DNA of 64,000 nucleotides from a virus. Below are positions 4,759-52,437 of this stretch, piece by piece. The stretch lies in the IMG/VR virus record IMGVR_UViG_3300013119_001061; one strand, given 5' to 3'. A program made the position numbers and the translations under genes. The notes beneath the pieces were generated by a model, which ran no database searches, had not been told where the DNA came from, and saw only the letters and a list, made by a program, of their open reading frames with translations. Each line of letters begins with the position of its first letter. The first letter of the stretch is position 1.

Positions 4759-5166
4759 GTGTACTATAAATTAAAAGCCATTGCTCAGAATTATTCTGAA
4801 AATGCACACAATTACAACATCTCAGCATGCGTCACAGTAGGCAAGACGAGGTTCTACGGCTGGAACAGCTATGACACTCATCCATTTGCCAAGCGTGAGC
4901 TCAAGTGTTCATCTACTGGCGAGAGCGTGGTAAGTTATTGCTACCATGCTGAGGTTCATGCACTTCAAAAGGCACTGAGGTTCACGCAGAAAATGAAATC
5001 CGCTGATATTGCGGTAGCAAGAGTTCTGGCAGATGGAAGCTTTACAATGGCAAAGCCCTGTGAACACTGCCAGGGTAAAATGAGAGATATTGGCATCAAT
5101 CCATCAAAGATCAAGTATACGAATTGGGATGGAAACTTTGTTACGCTTAATTCGTATGAGTGTTGA
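4759..5166 (+). CDS. zinc-dependent cytidine/dCMP deaminase-like protein
   Basis: HAE and PCEHC motifs. Confidence 0.75.
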   Translation: MYYKLKAIAQNYSENAHNYNISACVTVGKTRFYGWNSYDTHPFAKRELKCSSTGESVVSYCYHAEVHALQKALRFTQKMKSADIAVARVLADGSFTMAKPCEHCQGKMRDIGINPSKIKYTNWDGNFVTLNSYEC

Positions 5167-5230
5167 AAATCTACAAATCTCCTGGTTATAATCAAATACA
5201 AATCACTTATAAAGTGGGAAGGTAAATAAT

Positions 5231-6946
5231 TTGTCACATTCAGATACGAAAGGAGACTTCGGAAGCTTTGTGCGCCCCAATCGATTCGTCGGTTTACACG
5301 GGCACTCAGGCTTCTCGTAGTCGACTTACGACGGACTCGGCTATCCAGCTCAGCATATTGACTTCGTTCTTGACAACGAAATGGATGCATGGGCACTAAC
5401 TGACCACGGTCACGGCTCTGGCTTAGCACATGCTCACAAGCACTTCGACAAAATGAAGAAGGCCGGCCGCAAGTATCGGCAGGTATACGGTGTTGAGTTC
5501 TACTTCGTCGAGGATCTCGATGTTTGGAAGCAAAACTACCTGGGTCACAAAGAAAAAGTCAAGGCTGAGAGAGATGCAAAGAAAGCTGAGAAGCTTGCAA
5601 CAACCGATCTAAGCTCTGACAATGAAGATGATCTCAAATCTGAAGGACACACCATTGAGAATGAGGAGGAGTCAAAAGGCGGAGGTAAGGGGAAACCCGA
5701 ATGGATGCGCCGCTATCACCTCGTAATCACTGCAAGAAACGCAGCAGGCCTAGCCAATCTTTTCACGCTAGTAAAGAGAGGATACACCGACGGCTTCTAT
5801 CGGTTCCCACGAATTGACTTCAAGCTTCTCAAGCAATACAGCGAAGGTCTAACTGTAAGCTCAGCATGCATTGGCGGAATTACCGCAGGACGAACATTCC
5901 AGCAATTCCCGGGCGTTGATTTCATGGATCTTAAGCCTGATTTGCTAGATGACCCGTCAAAGATGAAGAATCTGATGGGTGTGCTCGGAAACATAACAGA
6001 TCGGTTTGTCGATGCAGTAGGACAAGACAACTTCTTCTATGAGCTGCAGTTCAATAAGCTCCCAGCCCAGCATCTATCTAACCGTGCGCTTCTCGAACTA
6101 CACGATCAGACGGGAATCGGGCTTATCACCACATGTGACTCCCACTATCCCGGCAAAGAATTATGGGAAGCCCGGGAGCTATATAAGAAGCTAGGCTGGA
6201 TGGGAAATGATCCGTCACCTTTGCCGAAGTTCGACGAGCTAAAGTGTGAGCTTTATCCAAAAAATGCCTCAGAGGTGTGGGATGAGTTCGACCGCGACTG
6301 GCATGCCTATGACTTTTACAAAGGCAGGGAAGAGCTTATTAGAGATAGTGTAGAGAGGACACACGATATTGTCTGGGATCGTTATGAAGATGTATGGGTC
6401 GACTCTAAGGCTAAGCTACCAAACTATGCTGTGCCTCAAAAGGGACATGCATGCTATCCTGAGGCACCCAAAGATACACCCTTTCAGCAGCTTGGAAAGC
6501 TTGTAAAAGCAGCAATGATCAGTCATGATATGGCCGAAAAACCTGAGTATGTTGCGAGGATCAAAGAAGAGCTAGCTGACATTAAGTTCCTCGGATTTGA
6601 AAACTACTTCCTGACAATGTATGATGTTTTCCACTTGGCCGAGAAGAAAACTCTCTTTGGGCCTGGCCGCGGCTGCTTTTTACCTGATACACGTGTAAAA
6701 ATGTCCGACGGATTAATGAACACAATTGAAGCAATTTCTCCCGGTGATCACGTAATTGACGCATACGGAGAAAGTCAAGAGGTTATAAAGAAGTTTGTAT
6801 ATGATATCGAGGAAGATATTGTTGAGCTTGAATTTGATGATGGTATCGTAATTAAGTGCACAGTAGATCATAAGTTCTTGACGTCAAATCGAGGATGGGT
6901 TGAGGCTCAAAACTTAAGCGACGAAGATGTTATTGTTGATGTTTGA
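5231..6946 (+). CDS. dnaE: DNA polymerase III alpha, N-terminal part (PHP + start of catalytic domain) fused to split-intein N-half; in-frame TAG at 5318-5320
   Basis: In frame upstream of track ORF 5381: FVGLHGHSGFS*STYDGLG, then ALTDHG, YGVEFY, HLVITARN, SACIGG, DSHY, GPGRG|CFLPDT; TTG start at 5231 after GGAAGGT. Confidence 0.85.
6674..6943 (+). mobile_element. split intein N-half (90 aa) in DnaE
   Basis: Starts CFLPDTRVKM after GRG; block B CTVDHKFLT; ends GWVEAQNLSDEDVIVDV*. Confidence 0.92.
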
Positions 6947-7007
6947 TATTTATAAATAGTTTAGTTATTCGACCCGGCCCGATATACTTATATTGAGAGG
7001 GCAAAAT

Positions 7008-7955
7008 ATGAAAACTCGAAAAACACTTTCAAAAGAAAACAAAAAATATATTGACAAACTTCTAGCAGGCAATGACCAGATGTTTATTAGTCAAGAGATG
7101 CTCGAAGTCATTAAGAAAGAAACTGGCCTGACAAGAATGGCGATAAAGCACCAGATATATGATCTTGAATTTGATTATAATTTTGGGTATTCATGGGGTG
7201 AGTTTGATAACAAGACACCCGGAAAGGCACGAGTTTATTTTAGATGCAAGACGTGTAATTGCAAATACAGCATGTTAGCGATCAAGCTTAGAGGACGAAC
7301 GTATAGCAACGACCCGATATGCCCAGATCACTATGCTAAGATTGTGACTTCGTCAAAAGTGTGGCGAGAAAAGAATAGAAGTGCACAGCTTGTTTCGCAA
7401 AATTTACCAGAGGCAAAAGAGAAGCAACGAGTTTCACAACTTCGACGACATGCACAGCCCGGAATGAAAGAAAAATATCGCCAGATCGGCTTAACACTGT
7501 GGAAAGATCCGGAGTATGCAAAAAGAGTATCAAGCTCACTTCGAGAAAAATGGAAAGATCCGGAGTATGCAAACAAGGTGATGAATAACTCAAAGCAACA
7601 ATATCATGGTAGCTACAGCGGAATGAGGTATCAAAGCTTAATTGAACTATCTTTTATTCTGTGGATGGTTAGTGTAAAAAGAAATATTGGGCGTTATAAT
7701 CTAGAGGGAATAAAATGGGATGGAAACAGAAGCTATTATCCTGATTTTATTGTTGATGGAAATCTAATAGTTGAAGTCAAGGGGACCTTAAAGGGATTTA
7801 TGTATCAAAGAGAAGACGAGATAAAGAGAAAGCAATCTGCTTTAATAGAGTGGTGCAAAGACAGAAAATATGAGCAAAGAATTGTTGTAAAGAAAGACAT
7901 ACCGAAAGAATTCTACGAGAAGGCAAGGAAAGTGCATGACAAAATTAATCTCTAA
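7008..7955 (+). CDS. free-standing homing endonuclease (PD-(D/E)xK, TnsA-N-like) between split-intein halves
   Basis: YQSLIE...YYPDFIVDGNLIVEVKG; CxxC and WKDPEY repeats; location inside the fractured gene. Confidence 0.75.
   Translation: MKTRKTLSKENKKYIDKLLAGNDQMFISQEMLEVIKKETGLTRMAIKHQIYDLEFDYNFGYSWGEFDNKTPGKARVYFRCKTCNCKYSMLAIKLRGRTYSNDPICPDHYAKIVTSSKVWREKNRSAQLVSQNLPEAKEKQRVSQLRRHAQPGMKEKYRQIGLTLWKDPEYAKRVSSSLREKWKDPEYANKVMNNSKQQYHGSYSGMRYQSLIELSFILWMVSVKRNIGRYNLEGIKWDGNRSYYPDFIVDGNLIVEVKGTLKGFMYQREDEIKRKQSALIEWCKDRKYEQRIVVKKDIPKEFYEKARKVHDKINL
7500..7573 (+). repeat. 23-bp direct repeat x2 (TGGAAAGATCCGGAGTATGCAAA), 51-bp period
   Basis: Copies at 7500-7522 and 7551-7573, encoding WKDPEYA. 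Confidence 0.9.
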
Positions 7956-10554
7956 AAAGCTTGTTCCGTATGATGGAAAAGTAATTGACCTATGTGTTGA
8001 AAATTCACACACGTATAACGTTGAAGGAAAAGCAGTTCACAATTCAGGCGCCGGCAGTTTAGTCAATTACTTGCTAGGAATCACGCAGATTGACCCGATT
8101 CCATACGGTCTACTTTGGAGTCGATTCCTCGGCAGACACAGGACATCGTGGCCGGATATCGACTCGGATGCAGGAGATCGAGATGCACTCATTGATGCCG
8201 CCCGAGAGCTGTTTGGTAATGATGCTGTTATTCCCGTAAGCAACTTTAATACACTCAAGCTAAAGTCAATTGTCAAGGATGTTGCTAAGTTCTATGATGT
8301 TCCTTTTCAAGAGGTAAATATCGTCACAGGACCATTACAAGCTGACGTAGAGCCTCATGCTCGAGATGCTAATACTGAGAAGTCGGTATTCGTTTTGACC
8401 CACGAGGATTGCATGAAGTATTCAGAGAAATATCTTGCTTTCATGACGAAATATCCGCATGTAGAAGATCATGTGAGCACGTTGTTTATGGAGCAAAAAT
8501 CAATTGGCCGTCATGCAGGCGGTGTTCTTATTGCAGATGCACGTGAGCTTGAGAAGACAATCCCACTAATCTCAGTTCGAGGTGACTTGCAAACTCCGTG
8601 GACTGAGGGAATGAACTTCAGAAACCTCGAAGATAATGGGTTCATTAAGTTTGATTTCCTCGGACTCACACTGATGAAAGATGTGGAAAATTGTATCCGA
8701 AGAATCCTCATTAAAGACGGGCAAAAGAATCCATCGTTTATGGATATCAAGGAATTCTTTGATAAAAACTTGAATTGTCGTACTATTAAGCAAGATGATC
8801 CAAGGGTATGGGAGAATGTATATCACCAAAAGAACTTTGCCCCAGGCATCTTTCAGTTTACTGCGCAAGGAGCTCGAAACTTCTGTATGCAAGCTAAGCC
8901 TGAAAACATTGAGGAGCTCGGTGCAATCACAGCAATTTATCGACCGGGCCCACTGAAGGCAAATGTTCATATTGATTATGTCGCAGCAAAGAACGACCGA
9001 GACAATATCGTGTATGACCACCCAGTGATTGAGAAGATCCTCGGTGCAACTTGTGGATTCATCACGTTTCAAGAGCAGTTCATGACTTTGGCAGTGGAAC
9101 TAGCAGGATTTACGCCCGGCGAATCTGATAAAATGCGTAAGACGCTGGTGAAGAAGTCGCTTGACACAATCGGCAAAAAAGGTTCAGAACGTGATGCATT
9201 GCGCAAGAAGTTTGTTGAAGGTGCTGAGAGATTACATGATCTAGATCCGAAAATCACACATGCACTCTTCGACAAGATCGAGTTCTTCAGCCTGTATGGG
9301 TTTAATAAATCACATGCTATCTCTTACGCAATTGACAGTTACTACGCAGCATGGCTCTTTACTTATCACCCCAATGAGTGGATTGCAGCTGTTCTTCAAT
9401 CTGAAAATGGAAGCCCGAAAAATCTGTCAAAAGCAATCCGCGAGGCAAAGGTTCTTGACTTCAAGTTCGAACAGTCAGACATCAACTACTCGGGCATTGA
9501 GTGGGAATTTAACTATGAAAAGAACGCATTCATTCCGCCGCTAACCTCCATCAAAGGTTTGGGAAAGACGGCGATGGCAGAACTGATTAAGCATAGACCC
9601 TATGCGTCAGTCAAAGATCTGTTCTTTAATAAGCGCGGTGAATGGCGATTCTCAAAGGCAAATAAGACAACCTTCGGAGCGCTATGTCAAATTGAGGCAT
9701 TCTCATCACTTGACGAGCTTGAAAGCGGAGATATTGAAAATCACCGACAGCTTTATCACTTGATTGTGGACAATTACGATAAAATCAAAAAAGCAAATGA
9801 TGGAAAACAAAAGTGGTTGGATAAGCTTCCTGTCCTCGCTGAAAAAAATTATGAGGAGGTCAAAAAGATTATCAAGGTATTCGAAAAATACAAGAATGAA
9901 GACACTGCATTAAAAATGAAGGCAGTTGTTGAAGATTCAAATGTCATGGATTGGAACTATATTGACAATCTTTCATCTGAGCTTAGGGTATACGAGCACA
10001 ATCAGCCTCGACGACAGCTGCAAGTCGACAGATGCTTCACCCGCCTAGAAGAGAACACTGTAAAAAGAGATAAAATCTTAGATAGGCTTGATCAATATTT
10101 CGATCTCAAAGAAGCAATCAAGGATTATGAAGATATCGAAGACTGGGCAAGAGATGAAAAGATTCGGCTATATCAAGAGATCACGTCAGCAATCAATAAC
10201 GAGCTTGTATTTCCGTCTGAAGTAATGGATAGAATCACGAGGACTGATATGCCGTCAGTATGTGAAATTGAGGGCGGCCAAAAGGCTGTGGCATGGGGTT
10301 GCATCGCCGAGGTTCAAAAGAAGAAGACGAAAAAGGGAAAAGATTTCTATCGTCTCAGAATGATCGATGAGCAAAACCGAAATTGCTGGCTCAGGGTTTG
10401 GGGTAAGTTCTTTGATTGGGGCGAAGAAAGAGGGCAGAAGGTTTATTATGAACCCCCTTCATTCTCTTATTGGTTGATGGAAGTTGACGTCGATCCGAAT
10501 TGGGGAGCATCTACTGCAGCATGGAAAATGAGAAGGATACCTCTTGTTGATTAA
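7936..10554 (+). CDS. dnaE: split-intein C-half (36 aa) fused to DNA polymerase III alpha C-terminal part
   Basis: VIDLCVENSHTYNVEGKAVHN|SGAGSLVNYLLGITQIDP; WPDIDSD, HAGGV, KFDFLGL, YRPGP, YGFNKSHA. Confidence 0.93.
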   Translation: MTKLISKKLVPYDGKVIDLCVENSHTYNVEGKAVHNSGAGSLVNYLLGITQIDPIPYGLLWSRFLGRHRTSWPDIDSDAGDRDALIDAARELFGNDAVIPVSNFNTLKLKSIVKDVAKFYDVPFQEVNIVTGPLQADVEPHARDANTEKSVFVLTHEDCMKYSEKYLAFMTKYPHVEDHVSTLFMEQKSIGRHAGGVLIADARELEKTIPLISVRGDLQTPWTEGMNFRNLEDNGFIKFDFLGLTLMKDVENCIRRILIKDGQKNPSFMDIKEFFDKNLNCRTIKQDDPRVWENVYHQKNFAPGIFQFTAQGARNFCMQAKPENIEELGAITAIYRPGPLKANVHIDYVAAKNDRDNIVYDHPVIEKILGATCGFITFQEQFMTLAVELAGFTPGESDKMRKTLVKKSLDTIGKKGSERDALRKKFVEGAERLHDLDPKITHALFDKIEFFSLYGFNKSHAISYAIDSYYAAWLFTYHPNEWIAAVLQSENGSPKNLSKAIREAKVLDFKFEQSDINYSGIEWEFNYEKNAFIPPLTSIKGLGKTAMAELIKHRPYASVKDLFFNKRGEWRFSKANKTTFGALCQIEAFSSLDELESGDIENHRQLYHLIVDNYDKIKKANDGKQKWLDKLPVLAEKNYEEVKKIIKVFEKYKNEDTALKMKAVVEDSNVMDWNYIDNLSSELRVYEHNQPRRQLQVDRCFTRLEENTVKRDKILDRLDQYFDLKEAIKDYEDIEDWARDEKIRLYQEITSAINNELVFPSEVMDRITRTDMPSVCEIEGGQKAVAWGCIAEVQKKKTKKGKDFYRLRMIDEQNRNCWLRVWGKFFDWGEERGQKVYYEPPSFSYWLMEVDVDPNWGASTAAWKMRRIPLVD

Positions 10555-52349: not shown

Positions 52350-52437
52350 GGAAAGTTGGCCGAGTGGTCGAAGGCGACGCATTAGAAATGCGTTGAGGTG
52401 CAAGTCTCCGTGGGTTCGAATCCCACACTTTCCTCCA
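52350..52437 (+). tRNA. tRNA-Ser (anticodon AGA), encoded CCA
   Basis: Acceptor GGAAAGT/ACTTTCC, D arm GCC-GAGTGGTCGAA-GGC, anticodon arm ACGCA-TTAGAAA-TGCGT, long variable arm, T arm GTGGG-TTCGAAT-CCCAC, 3' TCCA. Confidence 0.9.

Follow-up and report, generated by a model that had tools for sequence, protein, structure and literature searches.

The 64,000-nucleotide (nt) stretch of marine phage DNA in the IMG/VR record IMGVR_UViG_3300013119_001061, here called the window and considered at its full length, carries on its plus strand a phage dnaE gene whose PHP domain is interrupted by an in-frame stop codon. Translation of the frame that opens at TTG 5231 gave LSHSDTKGDFGSFVRPNRFVGLHGHSGFS up to TAG 5318-5320 and STYDGLGYPAQHIDFVLDNE beyond it. 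The motif around the stop thus reads ...NRFVGLHGHSGFS S * S TYDGLGYP, with TCG as the serine codon on both sides of the TAG, and the interrupted frame is the same as that of the called open reading frame (ORF) 5381-6946, which starts at ATG 5381. The Pfam PHP match of the part following the stop starts only at profile position 10, indicating that the start of the domain, with its HxH metal ligands, is encoded upstream of the stop. An earlier note on this DNA had drawn attention to the in-frame TCG-TAG-TCG at 5315-5323 as a candidate ribosomal stop-hop and had stated that the loss of 6 nt would yield the canonical PHP motif. The two identical flanking codons are present as claimed, and deletion of the 6 nt in silico gave HGHSGFSTYDG, in letters identical to those of the closest uninterrupted relatives and with the spacing of 140 of the 174 related loci described below. 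The gene was otherwise intact across more than 1,600 codons, a complete split intein included. Inspection of the sequence revealed nothing resembling a Shine-Dalgarno sequence ahead of ATG 5381.

TAG is an ordinary stop in this DNA, since it ends 23 of the 118 long ORFs in the window. No transfer RNA (tRNA) with a CUA anticodon was found within the 64 kilobases (kb), in which the sole tRNA is a serine tRNA with the anticodon AGA. Genome-wide recoding of TAG was considered and was ruled out by these two observations. The earlier note had listed amber suppression as an alternative only, which fits with the lack of a suppressor tRNA in the window. The serine tRNA, at 52350-52437, is of class II and has the loop UUAGAAA; it decodes the UCN box, including the TCG codons on either side of the TAG, with UCG as its poorest match. 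A34 is rarely seen in serine tRNAs of bacteria and phages.

Protein and DNA searches of metagenomes and IMG/VR yielded 174 usable related loci; nothing close was found among GenBank phages, megablast included. The closest relatives (L016/L017 and L096-L103) were 76-77% identical to the window and uninterrupted, reading HGHSGFSTYDGLGYP, that is, the window sequence minus two codons. Spacing of the motif was canonical in 140 loci, 18 fell into clades with one extra sense residue, and 16 were interrupted, at the same codon as the window, which is counted in addition. Ten further interrupted contigs were recovered by a nuclease-based scan, bringing the totals to 27 gapped contigs, 23 distinct sequences and 16 gap classes (Table 1). 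Fifteen of these classes, with shifts of 6, 7, 9, 10, 11 or 12 nt, lie at the window codon, and the 38-nt class lies one serine codon earlier. We refer to the codons before and after the gap as the take-off and landing codons. In all 16 classes, a stop codon (TAA, TAG or TGA) immediately follows a take-off codon that is TCC or TCG, and removal of the gap restored the canonical H-x-H-S/T-x-F-S-x-x-D-G in each class. No allele had a sense insertion at the gap site, apart from the separate clades with one added residue. On this comparison, the 6-nt interruption of the window is genuine and not an isolated defect; it is the shortest member of a family of stop-led gaps.

Table 1. Gap classes in the PHP motif of phage dnaE, with the shift needed to restore the motif
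Class	Take-off codon	Gap	Landing codon	Shift (nt)
Window	TCG	TAG	TCG	6
L187	TCG	TAGC	TTG	7
L104 group	TCC	TAGGTA	TCT	9
L153	TCG	TAGATA	TCT	9
L160	TCC	TAATAA	TCT	9
L193	TCG	TAGTGA	TCT	9
L077	TCC	TAATAA	ACC	9
L190	TCC	TAAGTA	ACC	9
L105	TCC	TGAATAA	TCT	10
L186	TCC	TAAGTAA	TCT	10
L181	TCG	TAAAGTT	ACG	10
L061/62	TCC	TAATGAAA	ACT	11
L159	TCG	TAATAATA	TCA	11
L056	TCC	TAGCTAGGA	TCC	12
L145/146	TCG	TGACCTAAA	TCG	12
L168 (one Ser codon earlier)	TCG	TAG + 32 nt	TCG	38

The two clades with a true one-residue insertion in the loop (L001-L013 and L164-L170, reading HSGVGSPFDG and HCGTGSPYDG) indicate that the spacing between HxH and DG tolerates one additional residue. In public databases, about one-sixth of the protein clusters of this family start at an internal methionine, that of MDAW (Met 5381 in the window), or have a frame-shifted FVGLHAHS N-terminus. 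A gene caller must report MDAW starts wherever a stop lies upstream, and the public proteins P0012, P0014, P0018, P0021, P0029, P0080 and others are probably mis-called genes with such gaps.

The gapped state required 11 changes on a tree built from 430 downstream residues, on which gapped alleles stand beside near-identical ungapped ones (L153/L154, L160/L162, L056/L052, and L151 and L158 with L161). Pairwise blastn of such neighbors (L153/L154, L160/L162, L056/L052 and L158/L161) located an insert of about 1 kb at the PHP codons of the gapped member. In five loci, the insert begins with the former 5' end of dnaE, which has been displaced, breaks off behind a Phe or Gly codon and ends in a stop. 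It continues with an ORF of about 305 amino acids that has CxxC zinc ribbons in its N-terminal part and a C-terminal YTPDF...EIKG domain and that matched Pfam Phage_endo_I (E = 1e-8) as well as PHROG endonuclease and resolvase families (E = 1e-11 to 6e-15); the product is predicted to be a homing-type nuclease of the PD-(D/E)XK, endonuclease-I-like kind. Intact copies of the nuclease always end in WEGK, with a stop codon that abuts or overlaps the dnaE start. After the nuclease come a new dnaE start, often overlapping the nuclease stop (TAATG), and a leader that was 8-13 residues longer than that of the ungapped sister in all nine pairs compared. From the leader to the second His, gapped alleles have 22-31 residues, versus 14-20 in ungapped ones and 25 in the window. 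A second copy of the RFVGLHxHSxFS codons and then the gap complete the insert. Judged by this architecture, the gaps are the right end of a mobile homing-endonuclease cassette.

The landing codon appears to travel with the cassette, since the nearest ungapped kin of L153, L151/L158, L104, L105 and L077 use AGT or AGC for this serine, whereas the gapped alleles have TCT or ACC. Among ungapped alleles, 50 of 109 use AGY for the motif serine. The same nuclease family was also found directly upstream of an uninterrupted, short-leader dnaE with AGT or AGC as the motif serine codon (L189, L192, L194 and L196); these may be alleles that resist the nuclease by codon choice and not by a gap. In L205-L254, more distant relatives of the nuclease, which likewise end in WEGK and whose stop overlaps the ATG that follows, are found ahead of another conserved gene, one starting MAAYKEQYYNLAEEEMQ; the nuclease family thus has other targets.

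In the window, the nuclease gene appears to have decayed to its last 15 codons, with the leader, a hairpin and the shortest gap remaining (Table 2). In a tblastn search, residues 294-308 of the L160 nuclease matched window positions 5182-5226 with 67% identity and an E-value of 0.54, which is weak alone; the assignment of the remnant rests on its position and on the common end motif. TTG 5231 lies one base beyond the stop of the remnant, and DNA similarity to the ungapped L016 starts only at 5276. No displaced original dnaE 5' end was found in the window, and the genes upstream of the window dnaE had no match in the 77%-identical relatives and did not inform the insertion borders. The ORF at 4759-5166 encodes 135 amino acids with a cytidine/dCMP deaminase zinc-binding domain (Pfam E = 4e-8); it shares its frame with the nuclease remnant, which starts 15 nt beyond its end. 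A further weak nuclease match (residues 215-228) was observed at 5119-5160, inside the 3' end of the deaminase ORF, suggesting that the end of this ORF may be a deletion junction.

We then considered the codons on either side of the gaps. Position 2 of the landing triplet was C in 15 of the 16 classes. Its third base was a pyrimidine in 8 of 8 classes with a UCC take-off codon and G in 5 of 8 with UCG (Fisher p = 0.007, calculated on classes that are partly non-independent). Pyrimidine-ending landing codons after UCC are consistent with the requirement of a GGA anticodon. Moreover, gaps of 7, 10 and 11 nt change the frame, and several classes contain double stops (TAA TAA, TAA TGA or TAG TGA), which together exclude readthrough as the general mechanism.

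The RNA signal proposed in the earlier note, a small hairpin between 5315-5320 and 5326-5331, was not supported: the fold of 5312-5334 reached -3.8 kcal/mol (z = -0.01), and 98 of 200 shuffled sequences folded equally well. Local folds at the gap in 11 short-gap classes were likewise no better than those of shuffles. Alignment of related dnaE genes, which the note had suggested, revealed that stop-led gaps with pairing-compatible codons recur at the site, and it revealed no conserved small hairpin in the short-gap alleles. The short gaps contain no take-off stem-loop, for which the 6 nt of the window would be too short; a GC hairpin inside the gap was seen only in L168, whose gap is 38 nt long. 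In that locus (L168 1450-1500), HAHS TCG is followed by TAG and the rest of the gap and then by TCG GGT TTC TCA. The gap holds an 11-base-pair GC hairpin followed by UUUU, which resembles a take-off stem-loop of the type known from T4 gene 60 and equally an intrinsic terminator, and no nuclease gene lies upstream.

The signal would instead be a long upstream hairpin, with a 3' arm ending at the take-off codon, that appears to be specific to gapped alleles. In the window, the fold of 5248-5326 had a minimum free energy of -29.3 kcal/mol (z = -2.61), and RNAduplex gave -19.2 to -25.8 kcal/mol for its two arms. The 18 nt ending at the take-off codon pair with the leader extension in 23 of the 23 distinct gapped sequences, with duplex energies of -17.6 to -31 kcal/mol, whereas no equivalent pairing was found in any of 108 distinct ungapped sequences (median, -6.6; best, -14.5; Mann-Whitney p = 3e-14). 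Pairing continues beyond the take-off codon in many classes, through the stop, the gap and the landing codon. The ends of the 3' arm vary by class (...GGCUUUUCC, ...CAACCUUCUCC, ...CCGGCUUCUCC, ...GGUGCCUCG and ...CCGGGCGCUCG), and the 5' arm changes along with them. RNAalifold, run on an unrefined MAFFT alignment, returned 11 consensus pairs, 8 of them with compensatory changes; these changes and the many G.U pairs point to a structure formed by RNA rather than DNA. In addition, every gap class has a GGAG-containing motif within about 10 nt upstream of the 5' arm, outside the gap. The leader extension encodes the hairpin arm as well as a peptide, and a possible role of the peptide is inseparable here from one of the RNA.

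Comparison of gapped alleles with one another gave a non-synonymous divergence (dN) of 0.14-0.20 over the 430 codons downstream, with synonymous divergence (dS) saturated. From the leader to the take-off codon, the ratio of the two (omega) was 0.11-0.18 in five of six pairs, the exception being L104/L174 with 0.52 at low dS. Across the 19-21 codons from landing to the first in-frame methionine, the proportion of synonymous differences (pS) was 0.5-0.92, versus 0.06-0.26 for non-synonymous ones (pN). These values indicate that both flanks of the gap, including the stretch ahead of the MDAW methionine, are constrained as protein, with the caveat that alleles exchange the cassette and part of their history may be ungapped. 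Restart at the MDAW methionine itself was considered as well, but the codons ahead of it show more synonymous than non-synonymous change, which opposes it.

We consider a hop of the ribosome from serine codon to serine codon over the gap to be the best explanation of this family, and a reasonably probable one. The ribosome would translate the leader and stall with peptidyl-tRNA-Ser on TCG 5315 and the TAG in its A site. The 5' arm encoded in the leader might then re-pair with the take-off region as the latter leaves the ribosome, pulling the mRNA forward. The tRNA would re-pair on TCG 5321, and decoding would resume at ACT 5324 to give the canonical ...HGHSGFSTYDG... protein, in which the junction peptide would be ...HSGFSTYDGLGYPAQ... 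The gap itself would break the nuclease recognition site without adding residues to the metal-binding motif. The TCG-to-TCG hop of the earlier note is thus the part of its proposal that is best supported. Its view of the hop as a free-standing throttle on polymerase synthesis gives way to that of a cassette end: with the gap at the end of a homing-endonuclease cassette, self-immunity is a likelier reason for it than regulation, and the gap probably exists for the self-immunity of the cassette, as in the MobA element discussed below. The hop module would comprise the Shine-Dalgarno-like motif, the long hairpin with the take-off codon in its 3' arm, a stop-led gap of 6-12 nt and a pairing-compatible landing codon. 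Opinion could go either way on the broader proposal that such a module, being portable, enables free-standing homing endonucleases to enter phage genes at their most conserved catalytic motifs, with ribosomes crossing the gaps at an efficiency sufficient to supply the essential replicative polymerase, by means of signals unlike those of gene 60.

Several points weigh against a hop. The window gap contains a single in-frame TAG, so that readthrough is possible for this allele. The landing codons ACC, ACT and ACG match the take-off codon only partly, and one class has TTG. A start codon stands at or next to the landing site in two classes (the ATG that overlaps the stop in TAATG of L061/L062 and the landing triplet TTG of L187), as would fit restart. 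Unassisted stop-hops in E. coli, studied by Weiss et al. in 1987, are reportedly about 1% efficient. The window cassette looks decayed, having lost its nuclease and having a hairpin weaker than those of intact cassettes, and possibly has low or no function. Should translation begin at the in-frame GTG 5270, no more than 16 residues would have been made by the time of take-off. The exact 6-nt gap of the window was found in no second contig in two pattern scans of IMG/VR. Finally, the gap classes share ancestry through the cassette, and class counts overstate their independence.

The main rival is termination at the TAG, releasing a peptide of about 29 residues with the HxH, followed by restart just downstream, so that the polymerase would be made in two pieces. 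Hairpin-aided restart has a precedent in T4 gene 38, and T4 gp39/gp60 and Aeh1 NrdA are examples of proteins that were split by homing endonuclease genes and that assemble. Restart would also account for the AAGGAG at the foot of the hairpin in every class, which the folded hairpin sets beside the gap, and for the start codons at landing in the two classes named above; homing endonuclease insertions are known to break proteins up into functional parts (bioRxiv 10.1101/2022.08.31.505936; PMC2677866). However, in-frame ATG, GTG and TTG codons are absent from the window and most classes over the stretch that runs from 15 nt ahead of the landing codon to the MDAW methionine, 20 codons on. Nor does restart predict that the landing Ser or Thr codons pair with the take-off tRNA or that their third base tracks that of the take-off codon, and a 29-residue piece with one strand of a barrel domain would hardly be a stable subunit. 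We therefore regard restart as unlikely. Clearly unlikely in our view is the reading that the allele is decaying or crippled, its cassette eroding after the loss of the nuclease gene, with the stop truncating DnaE and the polymerase either made from Met 5381 without the first PHP strand or lost from a defective phage lineage. The reduction of the nuclease ORF to 15 codons, the weakened hairpin and the single occurrence of the exact window gap would all fit such decay, as would the many public gene calls of relatives that begin at the equivalent MDAW methionine. These calls are, however, what gene callers put out wherever an upstream stop exists. Gapped alleles as a group are under purifying selection on both sides, the stretch from the gap to the methionine included, and the intact window dnaE and the lack of a Shine-Dalgarno-like sequence before ATG 5381 also argue against decay.

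Readthrough or suppression of the single TAG would yield HSGFS-X-STYDG, with two extra residues. The in-frame window gap with only one TAG allows for this, and the clade with one extra loop residue (HSGVGSPFDG) indicates that the spacing is not absolutely fixed. Yet TAG is an ordinary stop in a window that has no tRNA-CUA, homologous gaps have double stops or change the frame, and no allele carries inserted sense codons, making this reading very unlikely. Removal at the RNA level, with the gap or the whole cassette spliced out as an intron, is suggested by the displaced dnaE 5' end upstream of the nuclease in some relatives, since its joining to the body of the gene would restore the protein. 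We hold this to be highly improbable: searches of the window and of six gapped loci detected no Rfam family, group I and II introns included; nearly all of the cassette is coding; the junction bases appear to misfit the rules for group I introns; the window has no upstream remnant; and purifying selection acts on the copy of the 5' end that the cassette brings. It is barely conceivable that the 6 nt are an assembly or sequencing artefact that is absent from the phage DNA. The gap sequence is indeed unique in the collections searched, but a 6-nt insertion is atypical as an error, and an assembly error is unlikely because the window also has the nuclease remnant, the long leader and the hairpin that is found only in gapped alleles, features seen alongside the gaps of 26 other, independent contigs, which come from different samples.

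The closest parallel is T4 gene 60. A 2022 survey (Manning & Atkins, bioRxiv 10.1101/2022.08.31.505936; Bonocora et al. 2011 cited there) describes how a MobA homing-endonuclease element carries the gene 60 bypass, how T4 and other MobA elements lost the endonuclease and kept the bypass, and how the insert breaks the nuclease target without residues being added to a conserved motif; according to its authors, the bypass cassette "remains unique". Pairing of the gene 60 mRNA behind the ribosome has been proposed as the forward driver (bioRxiv 10.1101/2024.12.09.627546). As with MobA and gene 60, the free-standing nuclease of the dnaE cassettes is accompanied by a new start for the host gene, by an extension of the encoded N-terminus and by an untranslatable insert placed within a conserved metal-binding motif. 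The stop directly after take-off and the matched take-off and landing codons are also shared, as are repeated recent insertions and a progressive loss of the nuclease while the gap stays. In contrast, the two systems are not homologous: the nuclease is PD-(D/E)XK, endonuclease-I-like, and not HNH as in MobA, the host gene is dnaE and not that of a topoisomerase (II large subunit), and the gap measures 6-12 nt and not 50. Unlike gene 60, the dnaE gaps hold no take-off stem-loop, and their Shine-Dalgarno-like motif lies at the foot of the hairpin and not in the gap; moreover, the upstream hairpin is conserved and covarying here, whereas the 5' stem-loop of gene 60 is not conserved. On these grounds, the dnaE cassette is not a member of the gene 60/MobA family, to whose bypass it would be a short, independent counterpart.

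The window geometry, a codon, a stop and the matched codon with a forward hop of 6 nt, is identical to that of the stop-hops that Weiss, Dunn, Atkins and Gesteland reportedly obtained in 1987, when +6 hops over a stop between matched codons are said to have occurred on engineered reporters in E. coli. Those hops had an efficiency of about 1% and no biological role, whereas the dnaE gaps occur in a natural gene of an essential type, with a hairpin and in a conserved family. For the bypass in the terminase gene g6/7 of the Streptomyces phage phiHau3, the junction peptide was identified by mass spectrometry in E. coli (PMC10732093). This phage gene, too, has a short gap, which ribosomes can bypass with the help of a slow or stop codon and a landing codon. 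It is another gene with other signals (rare UUA or UAA), however, and no homing-endonuclease cassette is described for phiHau3. Dassa et al. (2009) reported that free-standing endonucleases fracture phage replication genes, dnaE included, at split inteins, and set bypassing aside as an explanation for their gaps, which measure hundreds of bases (PMC2677866). Their fractured genes share with ours the origin in marine and lake phage metagenomes, the dnaE host and a free-standing endonuclease of the type II restriction fold inside the gene; unlike those genes, which rely on protein trans-splicing, the cassette at the PHP site has no intein and has a duplicated 5' end and a stop-led gap. Literature searches turned up no report of gaps in dnaE.

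To our knowledge, T4 gene 60 with its homologues is essentially the only natural case of programmed translational bypass in bacteria that has been studied well. The other cases are yeast mitochondrial elements and one terminase of a Streptomyces phage. The present comparison suggests that a hop from serine to serine codon would be a very rare way of reading a gene. If it is true, a second, unrelated bypass family would provide natural variation with which to test ribosome take-off and landing, as it offers a covarying hairpin and 16 natural variants with gaps down to 6 nt. Homing endonucleases would then have become coupled more than once in evolution to an untranslatable insert, as a means of entering a conserved motif, and natural short stop-hops would be a widespread and so far unannotated way in which phage genes are read. 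Many database gene models that start at MDAW would also be wrong. Gene callers truncate these polymerases or call them pseudogenes, which affects the annotation of uncultured phage genomes.

Table 2. Features of the window dnaE locus
Feature	Position	Strand	Basis
Nuclease C-terminus remnant, 15 codons LVIIKYKSLIKWEGK, stop TAA 5227-5229	5182..5229	+	tblastn
Putative cassette-borne replacement dnaE 5' end: TTG start, extended leader, RFVGLHGHSGFS to take-off Ser, 29 codons	5231..5317	+	translation
Shine-Dalgarno-like AAGGAG at hairpin 5' foot	5250..5255	+	
5' arm of long hairpin, from leader extension	5255..5278	+	fold of 5248-5326
3' arm of long hairpin: codons of GHSGFS, TAG, first two landing-codon bases	5300..5322	+	
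Proposed take-off codon TCG (Ser)	5315..5317	+	sequence, comparison with relatives
In-frame TAG; the 6-nt coding gap consists of it and one of the two adjacent TCG codons	5318..5320	+	
Proposed landing codon TCG (Ser); ACT 5324 would be the next codon read	5321..5323	+	
DnaE N-part: PHP, start of polymerase core, N-terminal split-intein half (Cys1 codon 6674)	5324..6946	+	Pfam PHP, DNA_pol3_alpha, Intein_splicing
Second, separate endonuclease gene between intein halves, distinct from the gap cassette	6993..7955	+	phrog_945 E = 1e-6, phrog_33911 E = 9e-15, YYPDF...EVKG motif
C-terminal split-intein half (to HN/S ~8038-8043) and DnaE C-part	7936..10554	+	Pfam DNA_pol3_alpha, DNA_pol3_finger, HHH_6

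Further downstream, the window dnaE is fractured by a split intein at GPGRG/SGAGS. The N-terminal half of the intein (IntN) occupies 6674-6946 and the C-terminal half (IntC) 7936-~8040, within a span of 6674-8043. The endonuclease gene between the two halves encodes 320 amino acids, in an arrangement like that described by Dassa et al. 2009 (PMC2677866). With the gap cassette at the PHP site and the fracture at the split intein, this dnaE carries two unrelated selfish insertions.

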